Shown: in pieces, positions 2,897-48,200 of the stretch
Position numbering within the stretch: position 1 is the stretch's first letter
How the letters are laid out: every line of letters starts with the position of its first letter
Source of the DNA: Mizuhopecten yessoensis
Taxonomy: Eukaryota
Length of the DNA: 64,000 nucleotides
Reading direction: 5' to 3'
NCBI RefSeq assembly: GCF_002113885.1
Contig: NW_018407282.1
Location: 1,019,469 to 1,083,468 of the forward strand
Made by a program: the position numbers and the translations under genes
Notes under the pieces: generated by a model
Seen by the model: only the letters and a program-made list of their open reading frames with translations
Told to the model about the DNA's origin: nothing
Databases searched by the model: none

Positions 2897-3399
2897 TTTT
2901 TTTATACGCCCGTCGAAGACGGGGACGTATTATGTTATCACGTGAGCGGGCGGGCGAGCGGGCGGGCGGGCGAACGATGTCCGCTCGATATCTTGAGTAA
3001 TTATTAACGGATTAACTTCAAACTTCACAACAAGGTTAATTACCATGAAACCTCGGACAAGTTCGATAACCGCCATTATCCGACCATAATTTCTGGAGTT
3101 ATGCCCCTTTACTTGCCGAAACAGTGTCCGCTCGATATCTCGAGTAATTATTAACGGATTAACTTCAAACTTCACAACAAGGTTAATTACCATGAATGCT
3201 CGGACAAGTTCGATAACCGCCATTATTCGACCATAATTTGTGGAGTTATGCCCCTTTATTTACTTGCCGAAACAGTGTCCGCTCGATATCTCGAGTAATT
3301 ATTAACGGATTAACTTCAAACTTTACAACAAGGTTAATTACCATGAAAGCTCGGACAAGTTCGATAACCGCCATTATTCGACCATAATTTGTGGAGTTA
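2897..3399 (+). mobile_element. Non-autonomous Helentron/HINE (DINE-1/pearl-like) element, 3' truncated, with ~147-151 bp core tandem repeats
   Basis: Starts in a T-run with TTTATACGCCCGTC..GACGGGGACGTATTATG (subterminal palindrome), then a (GCGG)n microsatellite, then near-identical cores starting at 2978, 3125 and 3276. Confidence 0.8.
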
Positions 3400-11061: not shown

Positions 11062-14000
11062 ATGGGGACTATCGGTGACACCGTACTTAAACAGTTTGGA
11101 CCTTCGGAAGAGGAACAACCGGAACAATCAACACCAATACAAGAAGAATACATTTCAGCTAGAGAAGATCGAGTACCAGCTGACGAAAATACCCAAGGCA
11201 CTGATATCGATTTGCCCATTCAGCACGATCCGAAAGGGGAACCTTCTGACAAGTCGAAGGCTGTGCCAACCGGATGTGAAATCATCTACCAACGTGACAA
11301 CTTTGAAGACTATGATTATGCAGCAGACGTTGATACTGTCAGTGATGATAGTGATGTCCAGGTACATCACAGCTCTCAAATCATTCAAACTAAAACCGGA
11401 AACGACAGCAGTGTCAGTAAAAATGCACACATAGATCTCAGCTCCTCTGACAACGAGGCAAGCATGTGTGGACGTTCCACTCCCGAAGACGACGTGGAAA
11501 TCGAGGAAGTAGATCTAATAAAAAGATCACACGAGTTGGATGAGCTTATTGCTGAAGCATACCTCATGATCACGGCAAAAGAACCTGAGAAAGCACGCAA
11601 AATTGTCACCGATATTTGCGGCCGACTTGACCAATCTTATAACAGTGACAAGGACTATCAGTATCTTGATTACAGTAACTACTTTCACGAATGTGCCGAA
11701 TTGTACCGACAGGTAAGTAATAATTCTCAAGCGACAGATCGTTAAAAATAAGACACCACACACATGCTATCCATAACATTCATAATAACCTTCAAATTAA
11801 TTATCTCCCTTTGGTCAGATTTTACAATTCTTATTTGAATGTTTTCTCGTTTTATTAAAATTGAGAGCTACACATGAAGCTTTTTTCTCATTCAAGGTTG
11901 CTGACCCAAGCAATGCCGTGAAGATGTTTTATAGAGGTAAGTAGTAATTAGTGGAGTGTAGGAAGGAATAAGAAGCATGTAGTAGTTAGAGATATGAAGT
12001 AATTAGAGGCATAAAGTAATTAGAGGTATGAAGTAATTAGAGATTTGAAGTTATTAGATGTATGTAGTAATTAGAGATTTGAAGTTATTAGATGTATGGA
12101 GTAGTTAGTGGTATGAAGTACATGTACTAAGCGTTATGTAGTGTTTAGAGGTATGAGGTAATTGGAGGTATGAAGTAATTAGAGGTATGAGGTAGTTGGA
12201 GGTATGTAGTAATTAGATGTATGAAGTATTTAGATGTATGTTGTAATTATATATTTGAAGTTATTAGATGTATGGAGTAATTGGAGGTAAGAGGTAGTTA
12301 GAGGTATGTAGTAATTAGAGGTGTGAGGAAATTGGAGGTATGTAGTAATTAGAGGTATGATGTAATTAGAGGTATGAAGTAATTAGAGGTATGAGGTAGT
12401 TAGAGGTATGTAGTAATTAGAGGTATGAGGTAAGTGGAGGTATGAAGTAATTAGAGGTATGTAGTAATTAAAGGTATGATATAATTAGAGGTATGAGGTA
12501 ATTGGAGGTATGAAGTAATTAGAGGTATGAGGTAATTAGAGGTATGAGGTAGTTAGAGGTATGAAGTAATTAGAGGTATGTATTAATTAGAGATATGAGA
12601 TAATTGGAGGTATGAAGTAATTAGAGGTATGAAGTAATTAGAGGTATGAAGTAATTAGAGGTATGAGGAGGTTAGAGATATGTAGTAATTAGAGGTATGA
12701 GGTATGTAGTAATTAGATGTACATGTATGCAGTAATTAGAGGTACATGTATGCAGTAATTTAAGGTATGAAGCAAGTAGAAATAATCTGAATTTAGAAGG
12801 ATGTAGTAATTAAGTTATTCTTGCGTTTGGAAAATCAGCAAAAAATGATGTTATTAAAATACTGATATTGAAATCATTAACATATCAAGATTATAGTGTA
12901 AGGAAAATCCCTATAATTTAAATATGTAAATACATTTACATATATGTAATTGAAAGACATTAATATTAAATATTTTGATTAAAGCATACTTTTCATTACT
13001 TTTAATGAACAAATTACTTTGTAAATTACTAATATAAGTTTTTAAATACGCGGACTACTGTAATCAGTATAGCCTACTTATTATACTATTTTCTGCAATA
13101 ACTTTTATAAGTTTAAACATTTCGCTCCGAATTCATCAGTATGGTGTTGTTGTTTTTTTATTAATTCCATGGTATCGCACGTGATATTGCGTCAGCTGTC
13201 TTGTCTTCGCCTACTGTCGTGTTGGGGATAATCTAACTATCCATATTATTATAGTATAAATATATATATATTGATATATATTTGCGTAGTACTCTTAATG
13301 CTTTAGCAAATTAGTCGAAGGCTTTTTATAGTACTTGTATGATAATCGTTCAAAAGACGATTAGTCATTGTGATTGTTGCGAGGAGGCAGTTGCTTATTA
13401 TTAGATGATTAATATAGTATCATATATATTATACAATTATGGACTTTTGTGCTGGTGAATTTACCAGCACAAAAGCCCATAACTATTTTATTATATGCTT
13501 CAACAATAAAATAAAACTAAACTAAAGGTTCTGTAAAATTTAGCCAGGTTTGAATACAACAGTTCATTATTGTAGCTTTCAAAGGTATCGTCTAGATTAT
13601 TTTTCTTAAGATAAGCATGGAGGACATGCACTGCGTGTCCAATGACCTTTTAACGTTAACAGCATCTTTATCCTCGAATAGTTTTGGTAATTTTCTGATG
13701 TAACGGAGGAGAAACGTTCGCCAGCAGCCATCTTCTAATGTCGTCTGACATATCGCGTTCCAGTCTAACTGCGCATGCGCTACGAAAGGTTCCGGGGAAT
13801 TTCCATACAGGCTATATTTAGAAATCGATATTCACCGGATAACCAGTCTACATGACTTTTTGAGGACTGGTCACGTGTATAGTATCCGACCAATGTGATT
13901 GCGAGAAATGTTCATGCATATAATAATAATAATTGTATAACGATATAACTATTAATTTATTTCAGGTGTCTTACACCAGGAAACTGTGATCGTTACACAC

Positions 14001-17000
14001 CACTTAATGATCGCTGCATTGCTTTGGGAAGAGCTTATAAATTCAACAGTATTATTACAAGTATGTTGGATTGTTTCATTTATCATCAATGCAAGTGGTT
14101 ACTTTCACATACATTTGACTATATCTAACGAACAAGTGAAACATTTTAATGTAACATAATTGTTTTCGTTACAGAAAAAAGCAAGATAAACAAAACCATA
14201 TCTCGAATTCAAAATCGATGAATCAGAGGCATGACATGAACAACAAAATTACACGGGGCCTCTGTATTCCCCGTAAACAACACAGAATAAGACTACGTGT
14301 TTCGGAGAAATACGCGTCAGCTGCTATATCGACAAAATACGTCACGATAAATCCAAATCAAACTAAAAAAAAAATATCAGATAAGAACTGAGATGCTGAC
14401 AAAGAAACCGTGAAGCACACTAATGAACATTAAAAGTCGAAGTTCATATGAAACAAGGAAATATTTCAGAACGATATCATGATGGCGACCATAGCTTTCT
14501 ATCAATAAGTATCAAACTGCATTTCCAAAGACTCTGTACTTTTATGTTTTTCCATCAGCAATTCATCTTCCATTCGACTTTCATCATGGCAGTCGTAATT
14601 CAATGATGCAATGTAATTTTCGAGATAATTGTTATCGTTAATTGGGATGATTACAATGTTAATTAATTAAATCTGAACGGCAAGGTATCAAACAATTAAA
14701 CATAGAGTTAATGAATAGAACACAACATGTAAATCTTAATTATAAAACGCCCACAACATACATTGTACATGGGTTTTGAATAAGACAGATGTATTTCTTT
14801 GTTATATAACAATACATACTAACTGTACAATCTTGAATACTGAAATATGTTAACGAGTTATTAATTAAAAGCATTCTGTTTATGTTATAAGGAGGTCTTA
14901 AGCATCGCACATGGGATACAGATCCTCGCAGACATCAAGCTAGAACAGTCGGGTGGAACAGCGGTCCAAGTGCCTTTGTGTATTTATAATGACCTTATGA
15001 TGACCTTCAAAACAATTCAGATACAGAACCCACGGTGCACTGGTGCAAAGGAAGGGAAACTTAAAGCGATGCTTCCGTGGCTAAGATGTCTCCTTACTAG
15101 TGTAAGTGTGGTCTTTTTACACTTTAACCGTTAATATTCACCTCTGGGATTAATACCTTCGAAATGTGGCGTATCATCACGACCACAATAATTTTATATA
15201 TAGCGAATTATGCAAATTAACCATTTGTTTAAACAATAATAAAACATGATGTTTTATTTCCATAGGGTGTATCACCTCACATCGTAACAGGTATATGTAA
15301 AGGAGGTAAGTACTCGTTGTTTGTTATGTTTAGACAATAAACGAAAACTTAGAAGGTTGATCAGATTTAAATGTAGACATTTGGCAGAATATATAAAAAC
15401 AGGTTGAAACAATTATATTATGATTACAAAATACTGTATCTAGATGTACAATGCCATTTATTTTTTATTGGTGTAATTAATTGGAAGGAGCCTGTCGGTC
15501 CATATAGCTGTTATATACAGTAACATTTTCAATTCTGTAGCAAACATGTAGATAAACCAATTTATTCCTGTTATGTCCTCTGTTACTGGGGTAAATACAT
15601 TAATTTAACATAAAATCTCCGTTTTTAGCATAAAGCATGACTTTTTAAAAAGCTAGACATGTTAAGCATTAAAGTACTTTTCATTTACACCACAAAATGT
15701 TATGAAATTGCACATCATCTTAAGTCCATGTATAAATCTCAATTAGTCTTTATTTTCCTATTGACAATCTGTAAAAAATACATCACTGATGAGGGTTAAC
15801 TATGAATTTCTAACGGCCTCGTCCATTTTGATTTGAGGTTTGTATGTCTCTCAAGAGCTATTAAAAGAGAAATTAAGCTCTGTGTGACCCATGTATATAA
15901 ATGAACTTTAGCAAATATGTCATTTCGTAGCTTTCAGTACGATCACTTAAGGGAATGACATGTTATAAGTGCGGTGAACTAATTCTATTGAGATATCTGA
16001 GAAATTTGAATTCCAACGTTTAATTTTGGTCTTCAAATATAACTTATCAGGTGATTGAAATTAAGATGAATAACGTTTTTCTACAAACATCTTGATCATG
16101 AAGCATTCCGCAGTAAGCTACAAAACATGCTAAGATAACGTTAGTTATTGTCTTTAGTCCTGAAGGAGTATCCTGACAACGCTTCAATCCTTGAAATATG
16201 GGCACGTGCTTTACTTGGTATGGGAAAACTTGATCTGGCGCTGAGGAAGACAGAATCTGCACTTCTTTATGTGAAGGTACTTTGGTCGTTGCGATTATTA
16301 AATATTATTCATTACGTCTTTGTGGCCCTGCAGGTAGGGCGTCAGAATTGTACCTGCTGCCCCCAATTGCATGATCGTAAGAGGCGACTAAATTTGGGAC
16401 CTTATTTATCTCTTCTCTCCTTTCTGATTAACTTTCTTTTTCCTAAAGTCTCCCTTGACAATGCCTCACTTTTGGCCATTTGTTGAGCGTTCGCCCCTGT
16501 GAGGAAGGCTTTGGGTTCTGTCCCCTGGCCGAGACATATCAAAGTCTTTAAAAATGGTAGTTTATACTCCTGCTTAACGCTCAGCAAATTAGGAGTGGGA
16601 CGACTGGTTCGCCTGTTGTCAGTATAATGTGGCCGGGTGGGGCGTCCTGCTGGGTGTCTTCGGCAGTATGTTTCAGTGAGGTAGCACTATAAATCCGGCA
16701 TCAGTTCCGCGCTATCACAAGGAGACAAACACGAACATATCGCAGCCTCCCAAAAAACACACATATACACTACACGCATGCATCTTGCCCACAGGGGAGG
16801 CCGTCCTTAAATGACCTTAGCTGTTAATAGGACGTTAAACAAAATAATCAAAAAAATCAAAAAAAATCATTACGTCTTTGTGTACTTAACCTTATTTTCA
16901 TGTTTCAAGTATGCAACAAACGTGCTCATTTTGATATAGATGTTTACAAACATTTAAAGTTAACATATGGGACTGGTACGTTTGAATTATCTCCGATAAT

Positions 17001-20000
17001 TTATTATTTCAATTCATTACTACTCATAAATTACTCGACGTGGTCAAAAACATTTGTTTTAAATTTTAACAGAATCCAAAGCAGAAATCTGAATTGGAAG
17101 AATTACAAAGGGATCTTACTGCAGGAGTTAGGACATCCATCAGAGCAGTAGATGACAGCTCGCCTATTATGTCGTGGATAGAAGGTAGCAATTACATGGA
17201 ACCTCATAGGGTAAGTTATTTTAGATCCAGTCATTAAATATCGTTACTGATCCTGGTCCTTATTTTATATGTTCATATGTCATTTAAATTTAATCTATCA
17301 TATTCATAATCTTTGTTTTTGATAAACCGTACATTTTATCTTACAGAACAGCCCCCAAGTTGAGAAATTAAAGGAAAATCATGTCAAGAAACCCCATCGT
17401 AGGCGTGAGTACAGCTTTATGAAACATTACATGATATTAGACCACGAATCAGAAATCAAGTGTGTTCTTGAAATCTTTTATATTATACTGTTGATGCATT
17501 GTTACAGCTTCGTTTTACATAGACAAACAAGGGTATTTTTTTTTAATTTCAGCCAAAGCTAGGAAATCGACATTGGCTACTTGTCTAGATTTTGCAAGTG
17601 AGGTTGACAAAAAGAAGGAAACAGCACGTTCAAGTTCAGCATCGCCATATTGGGATAGTCATATTAAGAAGAAACGCCGACGACGTAATACAGCTGGATC
17701 CGATGTATCATCGACTGGAAATGGAAAGAGCCTACAACAAGATTTGCTAGAAGAAAAAGTCTACATCGCAGGCTTGGGAGAAGGCGACGACCACTCAATA
17801 GAAAGCGATGAAGAATTTGACGTTTCAGAAATATTAAGATCGAGTATATTTGATTTGGACTTAGGAGACCCTGATGAAAGCTCCGATGGGGAATCCATAA
17901 GAAACGCTGATGTTGAATCAATGTTTGAACAAAGTATTGATGTCGACACAGAAAACGCTGAGGAAGGCATACAAGAATGCGAACAGCTCTTGATCATACA
18001 TGGAGCGGAGCTTTCTCCTAGATTCATTGCCAAATGTGCCTTTCAGGACAAAAAGAACTATTACACCAATAGCCTGTCGATTGACGAGCTCAAGGATTTG
18101 ACCAGAAAGGATCCAGGACGATTCAAGAAATGTACGCTAAAGATAGAATCAGCTCACAAGGCTATATGTGGACTGTTACAACCAGAAGGTGATCTGAAGG
18201 AAATAGAGATCAGCGGCAGATCGAAATGCGGAAAAAACTTCATGGAAGATGAAGTTGTCGTCGAAATACTTAACAATGATCAAAAACAGTCCGATGTTAT
18301 ACCTCGTTTAAACAAAAAACTGAAGACTACTGGAGCAGAGACAAAATATGGAAAGGTTGTTGGTAGACTGAGTAGGAAACGATTTCGCGACATAGAACAC
18401 CCAGTGTTGGTTTGTGGACTGGATGAGCTTGAATACCATTTAATGCGACCGCTCGACAAAACCGTGCCTAAGTTACACATATTCAACAAGCATGTTGAGA
18501 ACAATTTCCAAGTCGAGGTTTACGATTATGACTCTTGTTCTTGTGATTTGAAATTCAGCAATGTTGTTAACATTAATCCTGCTCAAAAACACAGTTACGT
18601 ATTTCTTGTTGTATTCATACGCTGGGATGCAGTTTATCCTCTAGGAGCAGTGATCAAAGTCATGAGATCTGACGGAGGAATAAACAGTGGCTTGAAAATC
18701 CTAGAGTTGCAGCATCAAGTGCCAACAACCTACAACCATGATACGATTCAAAGTGTTCAAAGTATCATGAGCACAATGCCGGAAGAACCTGCTCCGATTC
18801 TAACAGAAGATAGAATAGACTTTTCGGAATCACTGTCCGTATTCACGATTGATCCGAAGGACTCGAAAGATCTTGATGATGGACTTAGCATCCAACGACT
18901 TTCAGACAATGTTTACGAGGTCGGAGTCCACATTGCAGACGTTACAAGCTATGTACACAAAGGAGACGCAATTGACGAAGAGGCGAAATCTAGGGCAACA
19001 ACATTCTATCCAGGACACGCAAAACCACCCTACCACATGTTGCCCGAACCACTAAGTCAAAATCTATGCAGTTTACTCCCAAACAAGAAGAAACTCGCTC
19101 TCTCTGTCTTTTTGTACTTTAGTGCTGACGGAGAGTTAATCCGTCAACGCACAAGCATAAAACAAACCGTAGTCAAATCGAGAAGACAGTTCAGCTACCA
19201 GGACGTTCAAGATATAATCCTTGATTCAACGGTTGACGATGAAACAACCTCCTCTGATATCATTGATTTGTTTCGAATTGCAAAGGGATTGCGCTGGAGA
19301 AGACTAGGTGAATCGATGCATTCATTTCCAATAGAAGTGGATTTGCTGAACGGGAGGGAAAGTGAACGAATGTTCGACACTCTAGAAGCTCATTTCCTTG
19401 TTGAAGAATTTATGATATTAGCAAACATGACCGCTGCCTCGCTGGTGAGCTCAAGCTTTAGGGACTGCGCTCTTTTGAGATGCCAGAATGCTCCACCTCC
19501 TGAGAAAGTGAATCAATGGCTGAATGATTATCCAAGGATTGCTGATGTCATTTTGAAACTACAGAACATAAAGCCAACTCCACAACGACAACTTAAAATA
19601 GCTAACGCTCCAAAGGCAAGGTACAGAGTCGTTATTGAACTGCAAAAGTGGATTTGGTCTTGTTTAGAGCAGCATGTCAAAGATGGAAACTACAGGGATG
19701 CATGCAAACTGATCGGCAGTGATGAATTCCACCCCGAACAAGCAATCGCATGGAACGAATGGATATGTTTTCAGGAGCACGCCGAGTATAGATGTCTTGG
19801 CTCTATGAAAAACCGTAAGGAAAGGTTTCATTTCACACTCAATATTTCTCCGTACACACATTTCACGTCACCGATTCGACGATATGCAGATATAGTGACC
19901 CATCGTCTTGTCCACGCTGCCCTTAACAAAAAAGAAGTACCCTATACGCGATGCGAAATTGAGGATATCTGTTACCACATCAATGAGGTTTCAAGAAGGG

Positions 20001-23000
20001 CGAAACAGTACAGTAAGCAATGTAGAGCTCTGCATTATGGCCACGTTCTGCGACGTAACCCTGCCATGTTCAATGGCTTCATAGAAACAGTTTCCGATAA
20101 ATGTATCCAGCTCTGCATTCCAGGGATGCAAGGTCTACCACAAAACTGTAGGGAATTGCAACTCAACCTACTTGGTGTGTCACGGAAACCAGACATAATA
20201 AAAGACCGAGATGACGATAGACCATTTGACATTCTGACTTTAGCCTGGCAAAAGCGCCTTTACTCCCATAGAGGCTATGCTCCATCCACGAGAGGTCTTG
20301 AGAACATTCGGGTTGATCCACACCAGAGAGCCATCTTTCAACAATATTTACGTTGGCAGGATCTTTTGAAGGTTTTGGTTCACGGAGACACTAAATTGCT
20401 GAAGAAGAACTTCGCTGTAAACGCTGACTATCAGGAAGGAGATCAACTGAAATCATATGTTCCGGCATGCACATCGACGGTCGTTGACGTAAGTTCAGAA
20501 GTCAGGCAGGGGGCCATAACAAAGCATTTCTGTGAGTTCAGCATGTCCTTCAACCATGCTCAGATTCTGTTAGTGCAGATTGGTGCAGAGCCACAGAAGG
20601 GAGTACTTGTACCAACTCCTCAGATCTTAGAACTTACAAATAATTTCATACTGTGTTTACAGCACACAAGTGACCCTGTTAAATACTTGGCTAAGTATGC
20701 GACAAGAAAAGCCCACACTGAAAACTACAAATCCATAGCCGAATATCTCGAAGTGTGGCTGTCGCTGATACGCATGGAAGCTGCAACAATGGCGGGGCAC
20801 GATGACGCAATCACCGTCAATGATCTCCCTGTTAAACTGAATGAAAAAGATGGTACTTTTTCAATGACCATGGATTTTTGTGAAGACAGAAACATTGAAT
20901 TCAGTAGCATGTCAATGGAATTCATTTTACATGGAAACGAAGATGACGAAAATAGCGATGAAACAAAGTACGTTCCTAGTTCAGACTTCCTTTGTCTGAA
21001 GTGTCGTTACGAGGTAGATGACGTCATCTACAAAGGTCTCAAAGGAAGCCCAGGAGAACAAAGGATATGGCTAGCGCACGGACAGGTGGATAAAATAAAG
21101 AAAATGAAGAAAATGGGAAGAATTGAAGTACACTTTTTGCTTCATCCTTCCAGCCAGAGCCTACCACCACAACTGTTGAACAGTGAGAGGAAACCTAAAT
21201 GTAGCGTTGAGATCATGGCGAAACCAGAATCCAATAGGTCTGTTCATGTTTATTTTATACAGAATTACTTGAATATTCAATTGATTTTATTATAACCTTC
21301 ATGCTTAACTTTGCAAGAGTTCCGAATTTCATTGAAATAATTGTTACAAAAAAAATATCACGGTGTTTTATATTCAGAATCAAATTAACTGAAAATCGAT
21401 GTAACGCGATTCGAAAAAAACCCACATTATGACATTGTTTTCCATTAAATATTCCTAGGAGAACGGAGGCTGCCTTACTTTGTTTGGATAAGGCAAACGG
21501 TTTGGCGCAGAAGATAGCTATGCGATTCAAGATTCCAGCCCTAGGTTTGTAGTGCACAGTTTTTATTTCATTATATCTCGCGACCATGATCGTAATTGCA
21601 GTATCAGATTTTGACAGTTTCATTCTTGTAGTATGATACGTTCCTAACGTAATTCTCAGGATTAGATTTATGATATAATGCGTGCTATACTAATTCACAG
21701 TTAACTATTTGTTTCATGATTTTTCTAATTCTCAGTCTCATGTTGTAATATGACTTTCTTAATAAATAACTAATTTTATGTTTCATATGCTCTTATAGCA
21801 ATACTTAGTTCTATGTTTGCGACATGTATACCAATTCCAGCTAAGTGGCTGTACAACCATTCACTCTTTAACTATCTCTTAGCCTTATGTTTATGATATT
21901 AAGAGCTCATGTGCTAAGTATTTTTTGAAGTTTATAGTAATAATTATCATTTATAAACACATATTAGTGACAAAAGAAATACTTACTACAGTAAATAAGA
22001 CAGGAATCTCAATTTTTGATTTCATTTTGCATTTTATTATCGTGAAGCTGTCTTTTAGTAGTAGGCATTTATATTCTTTTAAAAAACCCGCTGTGATTAT
22101 ATTTCAATCTCAAACTGTTTTTATTTTCAAGTAAGAGCATATCTTTGATACATCATTTAAACAAAATACATTGAAAAAAATCTTTCTTGAGAATTTATAA
22201 CTAAAAGAAGAAGAAAAAAGGTGTTCCTCGTGTAAAAAAGCAATGGAGCTAGACAAGGATTCAAACCGTTAACGACACCCAATTGATATACTGTCGCCCT
22301 AACCAACTCGGATTCCTGTTCAGCGGTAGTAAACTGCCCCGATGGCGGAAGGTTACTTAAGAAGGTTCGGTTTCAAAGAAAGAATACAGTGTATTCTCTA
22401 AAGTTTCGCCTGCAATGCCACAGACAAACATTTCTGACCTAACTTTGCAGCAGATTATCTCATGTTCTTAATGCAAAACATTTACTTGCAGACAAAAACC
22501 ACTTGGCGTTAGCGAGAAGAATGGAGGCAGAAGTTGACGTAGTGGGCCTAGCCCGGAACAACACCAAGCAATATCAGGCTATACAACAGGCCCTTACCAA
22601 TAGATTTACTCTAATTCAAGGTCCTCCAGGTAAGGAGATTTCTGCAGACATTAGCATATACATGATGATGTAGAACATAGAATTTGCGTTTACTCTTCCC
22701 AAGCTCCTTCGCGGTTCACTTCTTCTTTTGTGTCTTTATGATTGGATTTCTGTTGCTCCAGGTCCCGCTGTTAACTTTTCATATGAGTTTAGATTTACCT
22801 ATACTTTTATGCTAGGTATATTGCTGTCTAATTCGTGTAACTGTTTTATAATATTGATTCGATTACATGTTTGTATCAATGAATTTTAGGATAAACGCCA
22901 AATGTTATCTACGGAGAAAATATCATTATTATCATTATCATCATTTAGATGAACATTTTCAGACTGTAAGTGCACCATCTTACTGTAACTAACATTTGAT

Positions 23001-26000
23001 TATTCTTGTCATTACGAATTCATTAATATGTTTTGTTAATTTTAGGAACCGGAAAAACTTTCACTGGAATGAAACTGTTGTATCTGTTTACCAAACTGAA
23101 CAGAGTGTGGCATCAAGAAGGCAACCCATTAAAGCAAGTTGTCTATTGTGGGCCTTCGAACAAGTCGGTTGACCTTGTTGCAAGTAGGTTTTTTATGAGA
23201 ATATGTTAATTATTGTACTTGGACCATAGGATTTCAGATTGCGGATGTCTGTTTAAATACTGTTTCAAGATCATAAAAAAAGTTATTAAGATAGAGTTCA
23301 TCATTAAATTTAGTTTGCCAAAAAAAAGTAAAGCTTCAGAAACATCAATAAACGGAATGATTTAATCAACCTTGCTGAGTAAATGACTGAAGGATCAGTT
23401 ACATGTTATTGTTCGGTATATATTTTATTCGTTTAAAAACCAATGTATATTATATGTTGCAGGGTGGACAAAGAAAAAACTTGGCGAGCATGCACCAAGA
23501 ATGGTCAGAATGTATGGCTCTTCCCATGAATGTATGGACTTCCCCATTCCTGGAAAGTTATACTCTCATAAATCTCGCAGAGCTAAAAACCGGCCTGATG
23601 AAGATCTTCAGGACATCGCTTTACATCGTCTGATTCGGCAAGAGGGAAAACCTCATGCTGATGAGATCTTGGAATTTGACAAATATTTTCAACAGTTCCA
23701 CAACTGCCCGTCAATATCAGACCACGATTTGGCGGAAACGTTTAAGAACAAACTGAAAGACTACAACTCTCTTTTGAGTAAGGCAGGACAAGAAGAACTT
23801 CAACACTATGATGTCATATTTTGTACAACCGCTATGACTACTAACCCCAAATTCATCCGTGGCACGAAAGACAAGATTTTTCAATGTATTATAGACGAGA
23901 ATGGAATGTGCACCGAACCAGAAAGTCTTGCTACAATCATCGCCACAAAAGCGGAACAAGTCGTTTTGATTGGAGACCACAAACAACTCCGACCTGTGGT
24001 CATGTGTCAGCACGCAGCAAGACTCGGGCTGGAGAAGTCTCTCTTTGAACGATATTCAGAGAAAGCTGTATTTCTGTCGACACAATATCGAATGGTACGA
24101 AATAAATAGTTTTAATCATCCTGTTATCCATTGACGTTACGACATATACTAGGCACTATTTTGAAAATGTGTGGTTAACTCAGTGACTTTGAAATAACTC
24201 GGCTAACGTAAATTTATTTCTGTTTGTACATTAGAAACGTGGGTTATCACCTAAAGAACTATTGTATCTTCTCAATATATCAAATATATTCCTGGCTATA
24301 TTTACGACACTTACTAAGATTATTCATCCTTCCCTTAAAATTCCATTATTAATTGAATATTTAAATATCTACCCTTGAATGAAATCGTATTTACTGTTCA
24401 CATTATGTTTCAGAATCCACGGATTTGCGATTTTGTGTCAGCAGAGTTTTACAACGACAAGCTTGACACTGCTCCGTCTCGTGCATGGAAGGAGGAAACA
24501 CCCCTTAGCATCTGGAAGTACCCTGATGTGCCTCACATCTTCTGCCACGTGGAAGGGGAAGAGGAATATTTAACAGTTTCTACAGAGGAGGGAAACGAGC
24601 ACTCGTGCAGTAACAAAGCGGAGGTTGAGAAAGTGGTGAGTTTACCTGTTTTTGCTAGGTCTATTACACAGTTGCTGATTCTTTTTAATGATATCGATGT
24701 CCATTTCATGTAGCAGTGACCCAAACATAGAACAACTTAATATCTGCTTATAAGTTGCTGATAGTGCTTCAGTTAATTACAAAACTTTGTTCAATAATTA
24801 CTTTTAAAACATTTCAAACATAGAAAATGCAATTTAATGTAATACATTTATGTATCAACATGTTTGATATCGTAGATGCAAGTTTTCCGGCGCATGTTGA
24901 AAACAGAAGGAGTGAACCCTCGGTACATCAACATTATATCACAGTATAACGCCCAGTGTCATGCCATTAAGACGGCGTTGGTTGACTCTGGGTATATCAA
25001 CTGTAACGTCAACACTGTCGTCGCCAGTCAGGGTAAATACTGTTCTTCTTTTATACGTCATATATGTAAAAACATGCAAACACGAAAACTGATGGTAACT
25101 CATTTCAATAAATGCCCGCATATCATCGATTTGAATTTGCTTACATTTATTTAATTTATAACTACTGTAGATTAATGTTACCAAATTAGATTCTCTATAT
25201 GTCCATAAACTATGTCCATCAATATACCCAATTCCTTAATTTGTTACAAGTGTGACGTGATGTTAATTTTTTTCAATAATGTTCGTATAGCCCTCATACT
25301 CCATTAAACATGTAAACATCATTTTCATTTCAGTGTGTGTGCGTGTGTGTTTTCTTTTTTTGATAAAAAAGATATCTGTATTTATATCCTGCTGGTACTT
25401 TTAGGTGGAGAATGGGACTATGTCATTTTCAGTACCACAAGATCCCTTCCAGACTACAAGATTGAACCGAAACCGACCCTTGGCTGGTGTAAACAGAACC
25501 TTGGCTTCATCACAGATGAGCACCAGATCGACGTTGCCCTATCCAGGGCTCGTAAAGGCCTTGTCATTATAGGTAGGTAATAAATGTTTGTGAATCAATG
25601 TATGTAAAGGATACACAAAATGTTTATTGTATCCGATTGAATTACTATGGAAATACAGTAAAAGACAATTGAAGAAGGAAAATCTTTATTGAAAAATAGT
25701 TCATTTTTGTAGCACAGTGACATATTTTTTATTGTTTCAAAAAGTAAAAAATAATAATTCGTATTATGATAAAAGAAATTATTGTGTTTTATCAAAAGAA
25801 TGTATATCAATATATATATATATGTAACAAGGTTTTGTTCTTCATGAATATGAAGCATCTTAAATACATGCATGTACACTTGTAAATATAAAAAATCAAA
25901 CTGAAAATAGTCTGACTGAGAAAACGTGTACAATTTTCACGACAGCTTTGTCACTTGTCATTCAATTTTTTCCGTCAAATATGTATTTGCATATGGGTGA

Positions 26001-26208
26001 TATAACTTCTTTTTTAGGAAACGAAAACCTGCTGCAATGTGACAGAGTCTGGGAACGCCTTCTGGATCACTATAGGAAAAGGGGATGTATTGTGGACGCC
26101 AGAGAATTCCCGCCTCGCACCAAGACTCAGAACAGGAGGAGGAGGGGTGGTGGGACCGCTTCACGACAAACATCGGAGGAGTTTTATAAAGATACCGACC
26201 TAGGTTAA
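11062..26208 (+). CDS. HELZ2: HELZ2-like protein copy 1 (~2255 aa): acidic N-terminus, TPR-like region, RNB 3'-5' exoribonuclease, UPF1-like SF1 helicase
   Basis: Coding exons: 11062-11712, 11897-11936, 13966-14060, 14892-15101, 15266-15305, 16158-16276, 17073-17210, 17347-17404, 17553-21237, 21459-21544, 22492-22629, 23046-23183, 23463-24094, 24414-24635, 24876-25032, 25405-25572, 26018-26208. All introns GT-AG with matching phases; 6768 nt in total. RNB motifs: TIDPKDSKDLDDGLS, VGVHIADV, LVEEFMILAN, YTHFTSPIRRYAD. Helicase motifs: IQGPPGTGKT, CGPSNKSVD, IIDENGM, LIGDHKQL, QYRM, SQGGEWD, VALSRAR. The symbol denotes family likeness, not proven orthology. Confidence 0.9.
11932..12800 (+). repeat. 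17-bp minisatellite (TAGAGGTATG[A/T]AGTAAT)n in the intron after coding exon 2 of copy 1
   Basis: About 50 units, almost C-free on the + strand, starting at the splice donor. Confidence 0.9.
13429..13940. mobile_element. Copy-1-specific MITE-like insertion
   Basis: 12-bp inverted ends TTATACAATTAT/ATAATTGTATAA and an internal hairpin at 13439-13480. Absent at the equivalent site (~42640) of copy 2. Confidence 0.6.
16325..16866 (+). mobile_element. Composite SINE-like retroposon (structured head, degenerate tRNA region, Meta-like core, A-rich tail), copy-1-specific
   Basis: 16-bp TSD TCATTACGTCTTTGTG at 16309-16324 and 16867-16882; tail CAAAATAATCAAAAAAATCAAAAAAAA; empty site at ~44763 in copy 2. 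Confidence 0.85.
17553..21237 (+). CDS. HELZ2: 3.7-kb exon of copy 1 encoding basic NLS-like KKKRRRR, acidic tract and RNB domain
   Basis: Corresponds to ORF 17573-21295. Acceptor TTTCAG ends 17552; donor AG|GTCTGT at 21237; catalytic motif at 18851-18880. Confidence 0.92.
23463..24094 (+). CDS. HELZ2: Helicase exon (Walker B to QYRM) of copy 1
   Basis: ORF 23501-24109 contains IIDENGM, LIGDHKQLRP, GLEKSLFER and QYRM. Confidence 0.9.
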
Positions 26209-34322: not shown

Positions 34323-37300
34323 TTTATCACTTTATTACCTTTATTCGTTCGACTCATCAGTACAATACCACACCAGCACTATACAAATAGTACGAAGAGT
34401 GTAACCAGTTAAGTTAATTAGTTTCTTCTTTGATATATTTGGCTAAATGGACTAGTTCTATGTAAACAGTTAATGAATATGCTAGCCATTAGCACATGCC
34501 AACCGACGTCTACCCTATGACCTATCGACAGGTGTTTTGATGAGTCAATCAGATCTAATCTTTGAGTGGCACAGGTAGGTATATATGAACTTATTTATAG
34601 TACCTATGTTATCGTGGGACGATTTTCTTTATCATGTTTAGATTGTCTATCTAGTCTGGTTAGTAGGAATGCACTTACCCTTTTATAATGCGTATTTAGC
34701 TGTAAACATCAGTCTTTAAATATGTATTATGTAATATTAGCAGCACGTAAATCTGAATATTAAACACAGCTTTTATATATCGCTGGATACAATGTGTAAG
34801 TACTGTACATTATATCTTTTAATTATTAATAAAAAAAAAGTGCAAACACAAAAGAAAAACAAAAAATATAACATAGCCTGCACAAACTTTGAGGAAGAGA
34901 GTTCAGGTCATGTGAAACGGGAAGCTTTTCCTACATCCGTCTGGAAGTTTCCAATGAAACTAGGGTAATATGTAGGTCATCAACAGGGTAAACACTTTAC
35001 AATTACTTCCATCATAAATCAGGCTATAGTTACGAGTATACTATTTTCTCGGTGTAGATTCAATCTTCTCCGGTAGAGAGTGACGACTACCTAAATATTT
35101 TGTCAATGATGTACTGACACTTGGAACTAGCCTTAAGTAGCAAATCAAAGGTGACATGTTAACACAATAGGAATAGGACGGTAGAAAGATAGTGATCATG
35201 AAAATAAAGTTGTCACGTTTGTCGTTGAATTTGATAATTAAGAGTATTATCTCTTCTTGGTCGCGTCATTTTGTTTAGTTTTTTTATGTTTTATCCAGTC
35301 AACTAAGAGTTATTTAAGGGGCTGCAAGCGTGGAGATGTCCGGGCTCAGTGTTCGGGGCTGCCAGCGTTGGGAAGCCCAATTTTTAGCTTTACGTGTCTT
35401 ATCATACACTCTCCATAGTTTGTGATTATAGTGATATAGTAGTTGTTCAATATAATTTCTTTAAATGATTCCTTCATGCATTCATTGTTTTAAATCCCGA
35501 CATCCCGGATGCATGTCACTAAGCATGACCTTGTAAGTTATATACTTTTACCGATTGTCCAAAACTTGGACGTTAAAGTATCAAGACTTTAGAGGTTACG
35601 CATGGATAAGCAAGCCAAGCTATGACAAGTGTACTTAAATTTGAAATATTGGAAGACATCAATTATGAATATACTTGTCATGTGTTTTAATAAATGTTTT
35701 TATCTCTTTATATACATATGTATATTAATTAGTCACAAATTTGATATGTTTTTCTTGTGACAATTAGATAATCACATAAAAGAAAACAAAAATTCGACAC
35801 TCTCCTGTGCTATATCCATATGTAAGTAGGCACTACCTACTAATACGTATAGATAAATCAGTAAATATCATTCCAATTTCACATTCAGCATTATTAGAAC
35901 ACGGAATAAAACGTCAGCAGGACCTGCTGTAGGAGTTGTAAAGCTCGCTAACTAATTTTTAAAAAATCGAGGTATTTTCTTAATAATAATATCATAGAAA
36001 TCGATTGCAAATATCAGTATATGACGTACATTTATTTATTCTCTAGAAAATACCCGACTCTCGTGAAACGAAACCGGAATGGCATTTTTCCAAAATCTAG
36101 TATCGATTTATTTCAATTCGCTGACATAATACATGCTTGATAACAAATGTGTATATTGTGTAGGTATAAACGCATACCTAGTAGGAATAGATCACAAAGG
36201 ACATATACCTGTACATCCGTACATATACGTTGTAATGAAACTATAATGTGTTCGATTTCTTAACCCTTCGAATGGAGAGTGGTAAGTACAATGTACTTAT
36301 ATATAACTAGCATTACATTGTCACGAAAGTACATGTATTTCATATGTAATGCATTGAACTGCTTCATTTTTATAATGAGAATGACTGTGGGTATGTGCTG
36401 CCTAGCCGATATATGACGTAAAGTCACTTACTGTCATACAAATTAAGGAATGACCAAAGGCACCAGAACTTTTAACGGCATCGTCAGACAGAGAAAAAAA
36501 AATGCTCATTTCTTTAATTAAGTAAAACTTTTGACCAAATAAAGTTATAAGAATTTACAAAACAATGTATGTATTCTTGGTACAGAAGGCATTACAAAAC
36601 ATAAACATGGTCATTACTTCTTATTTAATTTGAAGAAGAAATATGTAACCTGTATAAAACTAATTTCTAAATCATGCTTAATATACTAAATCATATTGCT
36701 GATAGTAAACTCGAGAATATGATAAATTGTTCTAGTTAGCTTAACATAACACGATATCTTTTTTGGTAAATATGGTGTCACCAGTTAGTCACTAAGTCTA
36801 TAAAAAGACACGGAATTCCTACAAATATTTACTGTGTACATGTAGCTGTCACTAAACATTGCCATTTTAATTATACACACACATGTATGCCTCTCTACAT
36901 GTGTGTTGTTTTTCTTAAACAATACACTCGATGTGTATTTAAAGGCCAGTACAATTTCCTCTGTAGACGTTTTCCGAGAACTGAATATATCTATATATCA
37001 CTGCTTATGTAATAACGTATTTTAACTAGATGTTTTACGTGAACTTCCTGTTTTAGATTAGTCAATACACAGGATTTGTATTTAAAGGCCAGTGGAAATT
37101 ACCTCTGTGGTCGTTTTTTGAAAACACATCGTATCTATATATTACTACTTATGTAATGCTGTATATATAAATTAATGACTGGAAGTTTTGTCTGTACTTA
37201 CTATTTTAGATCAGTAAACAGTAGCGCAATATGGAGCTATAGCATCGCCCTAGAAGGTGAAGTGAAAAGCATTATATTATTCTTTTGGTGTTGTCTTTAT

Positions 37301-39263: not shown

Positions 39264-42200
39264 ATGGAGACCATTGGTGACACCGAACTTAAACAGTTTG
39301 GTCCTTTGGAAGAAGAACCACCCGAACAATCAACGCCTATGCATGAAGAAGATCGAGTACCAGCTGACGAAAATACCCTAGGCACTAATATCGATTTGCC
39401 CATTCAGCACGATCCGAAAGGGGAACCTTCTGACAAGTCGACGGCTGTGCAAACCGGATGTGAAATCATCTACCAACGTGACAACTTTCAGAACAAGGAA
39501 TATGCAACAGACTTTACTACTGCTAAACATGACAGTGGTGTCCAGGTACATCATAGTTCTCAAACCATTCAAACTAGGACCCGAAACAACAGCCCCGTCA
39601 GTAAAAATTCACACATGTATATCAGCTCCTCTGACAACGAGGTTAGCATGTGTGGACGTTCCACTCCAGAAGACGTCGTAGAAATCGAGGATCTAGATCT
39701 ATTAGAAAGATCACACGAGTTGGATGAACTTATTGCTGAAGCATACATCATGATCACGACAAAAGAACCTGAGAAAGCACGCAAAATTGTCACCGATATT
39801 TGCGGCCGACTTGACAAATTTTATAAAAGTGACAAGGACTATCAGTATCTTGATTACAGCCATTACTATCACGGATGTGCCGAATTGTACCGACAGGTAA
39901 GTCATAATTCTCCAGCGACAGATCGGTAAAAATAAGACACCACATACATGATATCAATAACATTCATAATAACCTTCAAATTAACTATCTCCCTTTGGTC
40001 AGGTTTTACAGTACTTGTTTGAGTGTTTTTTCGTTTTATCAAAACTAAGAGCTACACATGTAACTTTTTTCTCATTCAAGGTTGCTGACCCAAGCAATGC
40101 CGTGAAGATGTTTTATAGAGGTAAGTAGTAATTAGTGAAGTGTAGGAAGGAATTAGAAGTTGTAGTAATTAGAGATATGGAGTAATTAGTAGTATGAAGT
40201 AATTAGAGATATGTAGTAATTAGAGGAGGTATGGAGTAAATAGTGGCATGAAGTAATTAAATATATGTAGAAATTAGAGGTATAAGGTAATTAGAGGTAT
40301 GTAGTATTTAGAGATTTGAAATTATTAGATGTATGGCGTATTTAGTGGCATAAAGTAATTACAGATATGTAGCAATTAGAGGAGGTATTGAGTAGATAGT
40401 GACATGAAGTAATTAGATGTATGCAGTAATTAGACGTATGAGGTAATTAGAGGTATGTAGTAATTAGAGATTTGAAGTAAACAGAGATGGGTGGAAATAT
40501 AAAAGCATGCAATATTTAAAAGTATGTAGTAATTTGATATATGAAATGATTAAAAGTAATAAGAAGGATGTGGTTATTGGAGTTGTGCTGTAACCAGAGG
40601 AATGAACTAATGAGAAGTGTAACAATTTGAGGTATGTTGTGATAAGAAGTGCGTAATAATTTGAAGTATATATAAATCAGAGTTATGAAGTTAATGGAAG
40701 TATGTAGAAATTAAAAGTGCGTAGTTATTACAGGTATATAGTAATACTAGTTACGACGTGATTAGATGTGTTGTAACAGTATAAAAAGTCTGTAGTAATT
40801 AAAGGTATGTAGTTATTAGATGTGTGTAGTAAAATAAAGTGCGTAGTTTTTACATATATATAAGTAATAATAGGTATTTAGTGACTAAAGAAATGTTTTA
40901 ATCAGAAGGAAGGTCGTAGTTAGAGGTGTGTTATAATCAGAGGGAAGGTAGAAGTTAATGGTGTGTTGAAATCAGAGGGAATGTAGAAGTAAGAGGTGTG
41001 TTATAATCAGGGGGAAGGTAGTAATTAGAGGTGTTTTATGATCAGAGGGAAAGTAGTAATTATAGGCGTGATGTAATCAGAGGAAGGTCGAATGTAGAGG
41101 TGTGTTATAATCAGAGAGAATGTAGAAGTTAATGGTGTGTTGTAATCAGAGGGAAGGTAATAATTAGAGGTGTGTTATAATCAGAGGAAAGGTATAAGTT
41201 AATGGTGTGTTGTAATCAGAGGGGACGTAGTAATTAGAGGTGTAATGTTATCAGAGAGAAGGTAGTAGTAAGAGGTTTGTTATAGACAGAGGGAAGGTAG
41301 TAGTTAAAGAGGTGTTTTATAATCAGAAGGAAGATACTAGTTGGATGTGTGATGTTATCAGAGAGATGTATAAATTAGAGGTGTTTTATAATCAGAGGGG
41401 ACGTAGTAATTACAGGTATGTTGTAATCAGAGGAAAGGTAGTTATTAAAGGTGTGCTATAATCAGAGGGATGTAGTGATTAGAGGTGTTTTATAATCAGA
41501 GGGGACGTAGTAATTAGAGGTGTGTTGTAATCAGAGGAAAGGTAGTTATTAGAGATGTGTTATAATGAGAGGGAGGAAGTAAATAGATGTGTGTTATAAT
41601 CAGAGGGGACGTAGTAATTAGAGGCGTGATGTTATCACAGGGAAGGTAGTAATTCGAGAAGTGTTATAATTAGAGGGATGGTACTAATAAGAGGTGTGAT
41701 GTAATCAGAGAGAAGGTACAAATTAGAGGTGTGTTATAATCAGAGGGAATGTAGTAATTAGAGGCGTGATGTTAGCGAGGGAATTAAGTAGTAAGAGATT
41801 TGTTATAATCAGAGGAAAAGTAGTAATTAGAGGTATGAAGGATTCAGAGAGAAGGTGGAAATAAGAGGTTTGTTATGTAATCAGAGAGAAGGTAGTAGTA
41901 AGAGATTTGTGATAATCAGAGGGAAGGTACTAATTAGAGGTGTGATGTTATTAGAGAATTGTATTACTTAGAGGTGTGTTATAATCAGAGGGAAGGTAGT
42001 AATTAGAGAAGTGCTATACTCAGAGGGAAGGTAGTAATTAGAGGTTTGCTATAATCAGAGGTATGTAGTAATTAGAGATATTTTATAATCAGAGGGCTGG
42101 TAGTAATTAGAGAAGTGAAGTTATCAGAGGGATGGAAGAAAAAAGAGATGTGATGTAATCAGAGGGAAGGTATTAATTAGAGGTGTGTTATAATCAAAGG

Positions 42201-45200: not shown

Positions 45201-48200
45201 CCATATTTTTTGTTTTAGATAAGCCGTTTATTTATAACCCGCTTTCACCGAAACGGGGATATTAAGTTGGGTTTGCCTATCTATCTAACTGTCTGTCTGT
45301 CTGTCTGTCATGCTTCGTTTCCGTGCAATTACTGTGGCAATGTTGACCGATTTTCTTCAAACTTGATAACCGAGTTAAATGCCTGTAGGGCTCGACCAAG
45401 TTCGATGAAAACTTTCAGCAGACTTTATTTGGCGGAGTTATAGCCCCTTGAATGACGAAAAACGTCATTATCTGCCGTTTCCGTGCAATAACTGCAACAA
45501 ATGTTAACCGACTTACTTCAAACTTGAAAACCGGGTTAAATGCATTCAGAGCTCTGCCAAGTTCCATGACCACTTACAGCAGACTTTTTTTGGCGGAGTA
45601 ATGGTCCATTGAATAGCGAAAAACGTCATTATCTGCCGTTTCCGTGCAATAACTGCAACAAATGTTAACCGATTTTTTTTCAAACTTGGTAACAGGGTTA
45701 AATGCCTGAAGGGCTCAGACAAGTTCGATGACCACTTTAAGCAGACTTTTTTTTGGCGGAGTTATGGCCCCTTGAAAAACGAAAAACGTCAGAATCTGCC
45801 GTTTCTGTTCTGTTTAACTCTCGCAAATATTATCCGATTGTCTTCAAACTTAATAGCAGGGTTCAACGCATAAAGGGCCGGCCAAGTTTGACAACAACTT
45901 TAATCGGACTCCATTTGGCGGAGTTATGCCCCCTTGATTAACGAAAAACATCTTTATCTGCAGTTTCCGCTTAATACAGTTGTTGGATCGCACAACGTTA
46001 CAAGATGTGCGGTGTGCGCACGATGTGTGCACGGTGTGTGAACGATGTGTGCACGAAGTGCGAACGATAAAAAATTGGACGATCTTTGCTTGCGCACATT
46101 TGTGCGGACGATCGACGAACGTTGTGCGATAACAATCGTGGTTGGTGTAAATTTAGGGAATGGCTTAACAATATTTACCGTTTGCTGTTTAGACATATAA
46201 ACTTGATTTTTTTAGTATGTTTCCTTTCCTATTCTAGCTTCATCTACAAGCTTATCTTTCTGTCTGTACTTTAGAAATGGCGTTTTCGGTGTTTTTTAAA
46301 CGACCTTACAAAACAGCCTCGGCAACACAGGTAAACATAGCCACTTTGTACCTGCACCGTAGTTTTCCCCCGCCCGGGGCACTTACGTAACGCGCCAAGG
46401 TGTGAAACCAGTTGAACAGGAGCTTTAGATTAAAACGAATGCAAATAACAAATACTAAACGTCCAGTTGTGTTTTCATAACGGTATACGGTATCACATAT
46501 CAGCTCTACCCGTTAGGCACAGGCCAGGTAAAACTCCGGTCACTCATCAAATTGTTATTTATCTGTTCTGTTACCTAGCTAGGAGCCAAATCTATTCTTG
46601 ACACTCTAACGGTCACTGTAATACTGTGTTACATGCATTGTAAAATTGTTCATAATGTTAATTATGGTGATGAGAAATTACAATAATAAATACAGTGTAA
46701 ATTATTGTATACTAGTATGAGCCTTCCGTATTTTTTCATTCCGTAATATTGATCAACAAATTGTACCAAATCGCACAGTTGTGCGGAGAGAAGCGCAGAA
46801 CGGGGCGAACGATTGTCAAATCGCCCAGTTCTGCGCACCATGTGTGGACGATGTGCGGACGGTGTGTGAACGATATATGCACGGTGTGCGCACGGTATTT
46901 TTGGTGCGTTGTGCGGTCACACAACTGTAACTCTAGCAAATATTAGTCAAATTCCTTCAAACTTGATAAGAATGTTTGTTTTCCTCTGTCTTTCTACCCA
47001 TCTCGGGCACTCTTTGGTTTTCGTGTGATAATTGCTTTAGATATTATGCAGATATTTCAACCAAATTCCGTATGTGCACCCCCGACTCATGCTAAGTTTG
47101 CAAACCGATGTGATTTGTGCATATTTACGGATAATTAATGAGGTTAGTAAATTCTGATGGATTAAACGATTAATTTACACCGTAATACCTACATGTTCAA
47201 TAAAAAGTCTAACTTCTGTATGAAGCTTTTTTCGAGTTTCAAGCTATACATTATGTCTCAACAGCACGATACTCTCATATTTAAACCTGGCCTCAATAAT
47301 GTTTACCTACAATATGTCCTGCAAGCGGGGGATATAAATTCCACGAATTTGCTTGTTTATTTTACAGAACAGCCCTCAAGTTGAGAAATTGAAAGAAAAT
47401 CATGTCAAGAAACCCCATCGTAGGCGTGAGTACAGCTTTACGAAATATAACATGATATTAGAAGACGAATCAGAAATCAAGTGTGTTCTTGAAAGCTTTA
47501 ATAATATACTATTGATCCATTATTGAAGCTTCGTTTTACATATGTAATCCAACAAAGGTGTTGTTTTTTTTAATTTTTAGCCAAAGCTAGGAAATCGTCC
47601 TTGCCTACTTGGCTAGACTTTGTAAGAGAGGTTGACAAAAAGAAGGAAAAAGCACGTTCAAGTTCAGCATCGCCTTATCGGGATGGTCATATTAAGAAGA
47701 AACGCCGGAGACGTAATACAGCTGGATCCGATATATCATCGACTGGAAATGGAAAGAGCCTACAGCAAGTTTTGCTAGAAGAAAAAGTCTACATCGCAGG
47801 CTTAGGAGAAGGCGACGACCACTCAATAGAAAGCGATGAAGAATTTGACGTTTCAGAAATATTAAGATCGAGTATATTTGATTTGGACTTAGGAGACCCT
47901 GACGAAAGCTCCGATGGGGAATCCATAAGAAACGCTGATGTTGAATCAATGTTTGAACAAAGTATTGATGTCGACACAGAAAACGCTGAGGAAGGCATAC
48001 AAGAACGCGAACAGCACTTGATCATTCATGGAGCGGAGCTATCTCCTAGATTCATTGCCAAATGTGCCTTTCAGGACAAAAAGAACTTTTACACCAATAG
48101 CCTGTCGATTGACGAGCTCAATGCTTTGACCAGAAATAATCCAGGACAATTCAAGAAATGTACGCTAAAGATAGAATCAGCTCACAAGGCTATATGTGGA

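Follow-up and report, generated by a model that had tools for sequence, protein, structure and literature searches.

What occupies the N-terminus of a HELZ2-like protein that has neither the zinc fingers nor the first helicase of its vertebrate relatives? The question is raised by a 64-kb stretch of the genome of the scallop Mizuhopecten yessoensis (64,000 nucleotides of contig NW_018407282.1, hereafter the window), which contains one gene in two tandem copies. Both copies belong to a cluster of five RNB paralogs on this contig (C3955), and three further full RNB exons lie elsewhere in the same genome, two on contig C5561 and one on C1459. A sequence-only reading proposed that eight exons ahead of the RNB exon encode an acidic segment and tetratricopeptide repeat (TPR)-like helices in place of the fingers and helicase 1, and that these helices might bind RNA ends, as IFIT TPRs do, or partner proteins. 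What is new here, judged from sequence comparison, is that the short mollusc copies keep a remodelled TPR head. The architecture and the history of the genes are well supported; the function of the head is something that we infer.

Gene structure and transcription

The coding exons of the head and the remaining exons of copy 2 are as follows.

11062-11712, 11897-11936, 13966-14060, 14892-15101, plus strand: copy 1, N-terminal coding exons 1 to 4, AG/GT ends
15266-15305, 16158-16276, 17073-17210, 17347-17404, plus strand: copy 1, N-terminal coding exons 5 to 8, AG/GT ends
36268..37256, plus strand: non-coding 5' exons of copy 2, two in number, the first with its end at ~36281 and the second spanning 37210-37256, from a contig joint (37254-39181) and a loose end
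39264-39896, 40081-40120, 42674-42768, 43396-43605, plus strand: copy 2 (39264-47425), N-terminal exons 1 to 4, AG/GT ends
43801-43840, 44612-44730, 44970-45107, 47368-47425, plus strand: copy 2, N-terminal exons 5 to 8, AG/GT ends
47581..56300, plus strand: copy 2, exons for RNB and the helicase; the whole open frame has 2251 amino acids (aa)

As the sequence-only reading had it, the eight exons join the RNB exon in frame in both copies, with canonical GT-AG introns and without a stop, over 450 codons in copy 1 and 444 in copy 2. Phases are identical between the copies and so are lengths, save for exon 1 (651 vs 633 nt). The full model of copy 1 (2255 aa) is identical at every letter to RefSeq protein P0121, whose source label is ‘helicase with zinc finger domain 2-like’, and the open frame of copy 2 agrees with P0122 over the first 2247 residues. 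The eight exons are already part of the public gene model but carry no domain label, because Pfam gives no above-cut-off match to this part of the protein; in P0121 it finds no domain before residue 625.

Among four raw-read RNA runs, X24 is the only one with good expression of the gene. Its reads cross the joints E1-E2 (15 reads), E3-E4 (20), E4-E5 (22), E5-E6 (22) and E8-E9 (30), and E1-E2 is also present in contigs of X4 and X12. Thus, among the joints listed, five of the eight coding joints are seen directly in RNA, and a sixth, E2-E3, is indicated by loose ends in 18 X24 reads and in contigs of X4 and X12. E6-E7 and E7-E8 are not among the joints listed; both exons are covered by 23-28 reads. 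A single transcript for the eight exons and the RNB exon is supported. As the reads over the head mostly carry copy-2-like or third-allele letters, the RNA backs the exon structure shared by the copies rather than copy 1 alone. In each copy the ATG is preceded by an in-frame stop, and in copy 2 the 5' end is closed by this stop together with the two non-coding exons, the second of which (37210-37256) contains an upstream open reading frame of three codons.

In exon 1 the X24 reads, like the contigs of X4 and X12, are nearer to copy 1; over exons 4-9 the reads show copy-2 letters, and some letters match neither copy (39264-39896 vs 14892-18200). This pattern points to a haplotype that is mosaic or a third one, and possibly to gene conversion or copy-number variation. 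A ninth exon candidate near 14175 in copy 1 was discarded, having no counterpart in copy 2 and being bypassed in RNA.

A predicted TPR head

In copy 1 the N-terminal region can be divided into five segments.

11062..11526, plus strand: acidic segment, residues 1-155 (5' part of exon 1), 24% aspartate or glutamate (D/E)
11527..14060, plus strand: unit A, residues 156-262, extra helical hairpins (end of exon 1, 11897-11936 and 13966-14060), helical in both models
14892..17132, plus strand: unit B, residues 263-405, three predicted TPRs and a capping helix (14892-15101, 15266-15305, 16158-16276 and the start of 17073-17210)
17175..17192, plus strand: conserved W-x-x-G-[ST]-N motif, residues 420-425
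17386..17566, plus strand: basic tract, residues 445-455, spanning intron 8, with K/R in 52-92% of 25 heads at most positions

The composition of residues 1-155 bears out the acidic segment that had been proposed and suggests that it is disordered. It is 30-39% identical to three scallop orthologs and 0-19% to six other homologs, and a homolog search with exon 1 alone returned none among proteins of 381-2000 aa.

Residues 156-405, which are hydrophobic and helical, are predicted to form a TPR-like solenoid. An AlphaFold2 model of the head of the Pecten ortholog (59% identical to the window's head), built on a 14-row alignment, has a predicted local distance difference test (pLDDT) score of 82.9, with 14 helices and no strands. 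The Foldseek matches listed for it are almost all TPR proteins, and the top matches of Foldseek and VIA-align are without exception TPR or solenoid proteins. VIA-align gives a best Z of 13.8, and the tightest fits are between the C-terminal half and three-TPR-plus-cap domains: unit B aligns with the AIPL1 TPR at Z 12.7 and a root-mean-square deviation (rmsd) of 2.0 over 127 aa, and with STUB1 at Z 11.7 and rmsd 1.9. The lowest-rmsd matches are the peptide-binding three-TPR domains of AIPL1, STUB1, Sti1 and OM64, and the best folds for unit B are clamp-type co-chaperone TPRs (AIP/AIPL1, FKBP52, STUB1, Sti1, PP5; Z 11-14). By our reading, the final repeat agrees as well with the consensus positions of a TPR given in PMC2939883 (W360, A361, L364, A373, A380). 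The TPR-RNB-helicase architecture suggested earlier thus holds as a prediction from models.

Several results weigh against so definite an assignment. No Foldseek match has E<=0.001, and a Z of ~13 is common among helical repeats. Pfam TPR models fall below cut-off on 14 heads (best E 0.004), and the TPR_12 cut-off is passed by Lottia P0136 alone of 16 proteins. The confident model is that of the Pecten ortholog, whereas for the head encoded in the window, modelled with next to no alignment, pLDDT is 59, rising to 81-87 over the last repeat and cap. A PDB sequence search with the head profile gave two matches (E 0.07 and 0.10), neither informative, and for the head of a relative the ESM Atlas gave TPR-containing clusters at 0.91-0.93, which serve as a lead only.

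In profile comparison unit A matches neither unit B nor the ancestral TPR (hhalign 0.6-0.7%). An internal duplication of a three-exon TPR cassette, considered on account of two 40-nt phase 0-1 exons, found no sequence support (z 0.3, hhalign 0.6%).

Domains absent and domains kept

Downstream of the head, copy 1 encodes the following.

17553..21237, plus strand: large exon with acidic linker, OB_HELZ2, CSD2, RNB nuclease and post-RNB region (Pfam PF25049 E 3e-18, PF00773 E 9e-75)
18851..18880, plus strand: RNB catalytic loop, residues 884-893, all four aspartates present
21459..26208, plus strand: eight exons with a single UPF1-like helicase of helicase-2 type (AAA_11, AAA_12; motifs intact) and the stop codon; all eight downstream joints of the RNB and helicase exons (8/8) present in RNA

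The copy 1 model contains a single Walker A motif, at residue 1751, and no C2H2 or CCCH pattern. A helicase-1 profile matches none of 24 one-helicase heads (24/24 negative, best i-E 2.4), and tblastn with finger and helicase-1 regions matches only helicase-2 exons in the window. Pattern scan, profile and tblastn therefore agree with the earlier observation that no first Walker A motif and no C2H2 or C3H finger precedes the RNB domain. If a deletion removed these parts, its joint probably lies near the 5' end of the large exon 17553..21237, where no helicase 1 remnant and no homologous linker were found.

The core is well preserved. In both copies PF25049 and PF00773 exceed their cut-offs, in the order OB/CSD then RNB, all four RNB catalytic aspartates are present (4/4) and the helicase motifs are intact; on this basis, and by analogy with human HELZ2, both proteins may be predicted to be active. 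OB_HELZ2, CSD, RNB and UPF1-like helicase 2 follow in the same order, with an intact catalytic loop, in human and vertebrate HELZ2 (PRIC285), as described in the sections of PMC10516660 consulted. The window genes have the canonical D where the human catalytic loop has N, and they differ from vertebrate HELZ2 in having no zinc fingers and no helicase 1, an AUG start and a TPR head. They thus appear HELZ2-like in working, but without two defining HELZ2 features, the fingers and helicase 1.

The basic tract is reminiscent of a nuclear localisation signal. A second basic run of similar type (residues 488-494, seven K/R, window 17663-17683) is common to Pecten P0001. Human HELZ2 is cytoplasmic.

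Origin of the head

A key to the history of the head is provided by a second type of HELZ2 gene in the same genome.

G000:C1459:68632-120000 (L010-L014): two-helicase HELZ2 gene with ZC3H7-type TPR, finger array and dead RNB loop

Upstream of the C1459 fingers, eight exons splice open (one intron being GC-AG) and would encode a TPR, a W-x-x-G-T-N motif and a basic tract. Protein P0175 has TPR, motif and fingers in a single chain, as in the C1459 model (E 2e-34 within 150 hits). The C1459 TPR exons of 201, 37, 122, 165 and 37 nt end in phases 0,1,0,0,1; window exons 4-8, of 210, 40, 119, 138 and 58 nt, end in the same phases. In a profile alignment the first two introns are in exact register and the fourth is off by one residue. 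By hhalign, residues 263-455 match six two-helicase-type heads at 97.5% (E 5.7e-12), and unit B without the motif does so at 90.9%; when units A and B are reversed as controls, the figure is 0.1%. Pairwise, unit B and C1459 are only weakly similar (z 2.6; 46 of 2000 shuffles reach the score), which weighs against homology. As a moderate hhalign score is possible for any TPR, the case is carried by the introns and the motif. On the combined evidence of profile, intron phases and motif, the head is homologous to the TPR of the two-helicase paralog.

The association is not peculiar to scallops. Full-length invertebrate HELZ2s (C1459, Lingula P0139, Antedon P0140/P0141 and sea urchin P0142) have an N-terminal TPR like the window genes, but unlike them continue into fingers and helicase 1. 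The TPR-type N-terminus ahead of the fingers is detected by Pfam in Lingula (TPR_1, E 0.003), and by eye and alignment in Antedon, sea urchin and P0165; none was seen in Lineus P0138. C1459 and Lingula also share the motif and basic tract with the window genes, and the Lingula model lacks helicase 2. The 14-head profile has no significant match to the vertebrate HELZ2s examined.

Since two-helicase HELZ2s from this genome, from a brachiopod and from echinoderms have a TPR ahead of their fingers, the head is probably ancestral and has most likely been retained, not swapped in. Thus, the suggestion of a TPR instead of fingers and helicase 1 stands as to the absence of the latter two, but not as to an exchange. 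Parsimony over phyla makes it most likely that the fingers and helicase 1 were lost internally in these genes. Set against this history, an approximately unbiased (AU) test leaves a clade of two-helicase forms unrejected (p 0.19), so that the direction of loss depends on parsimony. A placement of one-helicase forms as sister to C1459 and Lineus is also not rejected (p 0.21), and their sister link to Lingula and Owenia has support of 82/92.

The ancestry appears to reach further, to proteins that from their architecture we take to be of the ZC3H7 type, which hhalign matches to unit B at 89% and to two-helicase heads at 99.7%. ZC3H7A and ZC3H7B (RoXaN) would share with the window genes a homologous three-TPR-plus-cap head, but have fingers and no enzyme, whereas the window proteins combine an enzyme with an enlarged head and are without fingers or clamp. 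In the part of bioRxiv 10.1101/2025.04.21.649502 consulted, ZC3H7A/ZC3H7B are described as TPR, disordered region and zinc fingers. A single first-look search found no separate ZC3H7 gene in this genome, which is weak evidence.

The W-x-x-G-[ST]-N motif has an aromatic residue at 420 in 92% of heads and N425 in 20 of 25. It is present in the two-helicase forms C1459, P0139 and P0175 and, among the proteins examined, was found neither in ZC3H7-type proteins nor in vertebrate HELZ2s; it is thus limited to genes of the kind that combine TPR and core. It could be argued from this that head and motif act intramolecularly, the head forming a lid or brake over the nuclease or the helicase and opening on activation. 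We consider such a lid unlikely: an acidic linker of ~170 aa separates head and core, the distance being ~1500 aa in two-helicase forms, and it is equally conceivable that the motif packs against the TPR itself (model helix 271-288, pLDDT about 60-67). A complex prediction of head and OB-RNB, run without use of the alignment, scored 0.00 and speaks neither for nor against such a contact.

Loss of the clamp and divergence of the head

The carboxylate-clamp pattern K5N9-N6-K2R6, as given in the portion of PMC2939883 used here, is complete in C1459 and P0175. In one-helicase heads (n=25), the N6 and R6 of the co-chaperones are each absent from all 25 (0/25), and K/R is present at K2 in five (5/25); the first-repeat K5/N9 positions did not align in these heads. 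Copy 1 has P324, S355 and I359 at clamp positions. By its residues, then, the Hsp70/90-type clamp is lost from one-helicase heads. The nuclease shows the reverse: C1459 keeps one of four catalytic aspartates and has an altered downstream RNB motif, a dead nuclease loop by sequence, so that C1459 combines a full clamp with a dead RNB loop, whereas the window genes have lost the clamp and keep the RNB loop intact.

The copies are 86% identical over the helical head. Between them dN (nonsynonymous divergence) is 0.071 in the head vs 0.038-0.047 in the core, and dN/dS (its ratio to synonymous divergence) is 0.45 vs 0.23-0.39; at this depth there is no sign of positive selection on the head. To six more distant homologs the head is 16-33% identical vs 38-51% for RNB. 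This rapid divergence, the lost clamp and the replacement or absence of the head in several paralogs would suit a decaying relic of the ancestral TPR, retained only as a folded spacer. Nevertheless, the head grew rather than shrank, its dN/dS between the copies is <1, and it is retained in 14 bivalve and gastropod genera with conserved positions W251, C343, W360, L364 and A373, so that mere decay seems very unlikely.

Distribution among molluscs

A survey across molluscs, as had been suggested, finds the head in 14 genera of bivalves and gastropods.

Head-bearing genera: Mizuhopecten, Pecten, Ylistrum, Argopecten, Mytilus, Ostrea, Saccostrea, Mercenaria, Mya, Haliotis, Gigantopelta, Lottia, Nucella, Babylonia

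Each of 17 long mollusc hits has one Walker A motif, placed after RNB, and 13 of the 17, none of them among the 14 proteins on which the profile was trained, match the head profile; the genera above are counted over these 13 matches and the 14 training proteins. The other four hits (4/17) have no head, which tells against a general need for it and indicates that it is dispensable within the clade. Among 28 other hits, Walker A precedes RNB in 27, the remaining one (Owenia) having half of helicase 1, and only Lingula matches the head profile. P0080 (1747 aa), outside the mollusc clade, has a single helicase and may be partial. As the homolog searches were word-limited, ‘mollusc-only’ means among the hits obtained. 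The mollusc one-helicase proteins form one clade in a tree with outgroups (100/99; 22 of 59 rows) and in a tree of 20 of 59 rows (99/98; 10/10 sampled proteins) from which the long-branch P0080 and C5561a were left out.

Third and fourth tandem copies (P0004, P0002) follow on the scallop contig (L001-L003, L005; G000:C3955:1088000-1133468). The third has a full set of head exons, though its database model starts late; in the DNA covered for the fourth, scores were obtained just for the exons of the motif and the basic tract. Upstream on C3955 (L028, L008, L007) lies a more distant one-helicase paralog, the head of which appears to consist of acidic repeats, not TPR, like P0044 and P0126. Head swapping is seen elsewhere in the clade (P0040, P0128, P0125, P0137, P0135, P0136), with C2H2-like heads in Mytilus and repeated TPR blocks in Lottia; Saccostrea P0125 has a weak DZIP3-type HEPN match before the TPR and a degenerate RNB loop. 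On C5561 (L017, L024) two RNB-helicase paralogs have D-to-V at the second catalytic position, and the DNA upstream of one is gapped.

Function of the head

The explanation that we favour, with moderate confidence, is that the two genes are HELZ2 paralogs with one helicase, expressed and intact in the RNB loop, in which a predicted TPR head, likely ancestral, would dock the enzyme on a partner protein. An ancestor gene of the order TPR-fingers-helicase 1-OB-RNB-helicase 2 would have been duplicated. From one duplicate the part with the fingers and helicase 1, lying between basic tract and acidic linker, would have been lost before the bivalve/gastropod split; this duplicate would then have multiplied, and its TPR would have acquired extra hairpins and switched ligand. 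As in human HELZ2, the helicase would unwind structured RNA so that RNB can degrade it 3'-5', and target choice, the proposed role of the fingers in HELZ2, would shift to a protein bound by the TPR groove on a viral, transposon or cellular ribonucleoprotein (RNP). In the sections of PMC10516660 consulted, human HELZ2 degrades RNA 3'-5' and uses ATP to pass duplexes; its helicase 2 is the more active, and mutating either helicase costs more ATPase than expected. RNase and ATPase activity, breakdown of duplexes and induction by virus are documented for the human protein only. An antiviral role for the mollusc proteins may be supposed by analogy with the family; the part of 10.64898/2026.05.15.723513 consulted reports that ostreid herpesvirus 1 (OsHV-1) induces an oyster ‘Helz2’, the type of which is not stated.

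With the fingers absent, another part of the protein must choose targets, and the TPR head might do so by binding RNA directly, e.g. at 5' ends, as an RNA sensor. IFIT1 and IFIT5 place a TPR solenoid in a comparable antiviral RNA context, and according to the portion of PMC10946433 consulted IFITs hold RNA 5' ends via their TPRs. The hairpins of the mollusc heads, ~six in number, could make up a groove; positions 230 (76%), 327 (76%) and 376 (84%) are conserved as K/R, and the basic tract follows; the K/R at 327 (19/25 heads), which could contact RNA, also counts against docking on a protein. However, the head is near-neutral, with a net charge of -4 in copy 1 and of -18 to +7 across 25 heads; the RNA-binding tunnel of IFITs is basic. 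At ~250 aa the head is roughly half an IFIT, its descent is from a ZC3H7-type TPR with a peptide clamp, and no IFIT is among the fold matches listed, admittedly a weak point. Thus, IFIT-like binding of RNA ends, one of the roles first suggested, is not supported so far and appears rather improbable; the modelled head, with its best fits to protein-binding three-TPR-plus-cap domains, more likely serves protein docking.

It is attractive to go beyond docking and to suppose that molluscs have split HELZ2 into a two-part antiviral system, in which one conserved, nuclease-dead sensor with fingers, two helicases and clamp TPR is accompanied by a set of active nucleases that expands in tandem. The fast-evolving or swapped-in heads of the latter would be variable recognition modules, recruiting nuclease in trans to sensor RNPs or directly to viral or transposon proteins. 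We regard this as tentative and, for the present, doubtful.

No title or abstract describing a TPR-bearing or a one-helicase HELZ2 was found in the literature, subscription journals being outside the scope. The main HELZ2 paper (PMC10516660), in the sections consulted, mentions molluscs and the similarity of the fingers to those of ZC3H7; there ‘TPR’ occurs only in a reference title, and not at all in one supplement. The shared head, motif and introns provide a testable history in which a single ancestral gene gave rise to ZC3H7/RoXaN, to the HELZ2 of vertebrates and to the expansion in molluscs, and the short genes are a natural experiment on two points left by the human study, the role of the fingers and whether one helicase suffices. 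Moreover, the ‘zinc finger’ database label on finger-less genes means that mollusc immune transcriptomes lump one-helicase forms, with an intact nuclease site, with the nuclease-dead full-length form. As farmed bivalves depend on innate antiviral defence, the ligand of the head is also of practical interest.

Repeats in the window

Intron 2 contains a minisatellite in both copies (11932-12767, 40146-42295), with a G-rich strand and units of 17 bp (and 35 bp), which is much longer in copy 2. Tandem repeats of 161 bp (45316-45969) and 151 bp (2978-3399) are also present, the former inside an insertion of ~2 kb in copy-2 intron 7. An insertion in copy-1 intron 6 (16330-16850), absent from copy 2, is covered very deeply by mismatched reads in each of the four RNA runs and is likely an abundant short repeat element.

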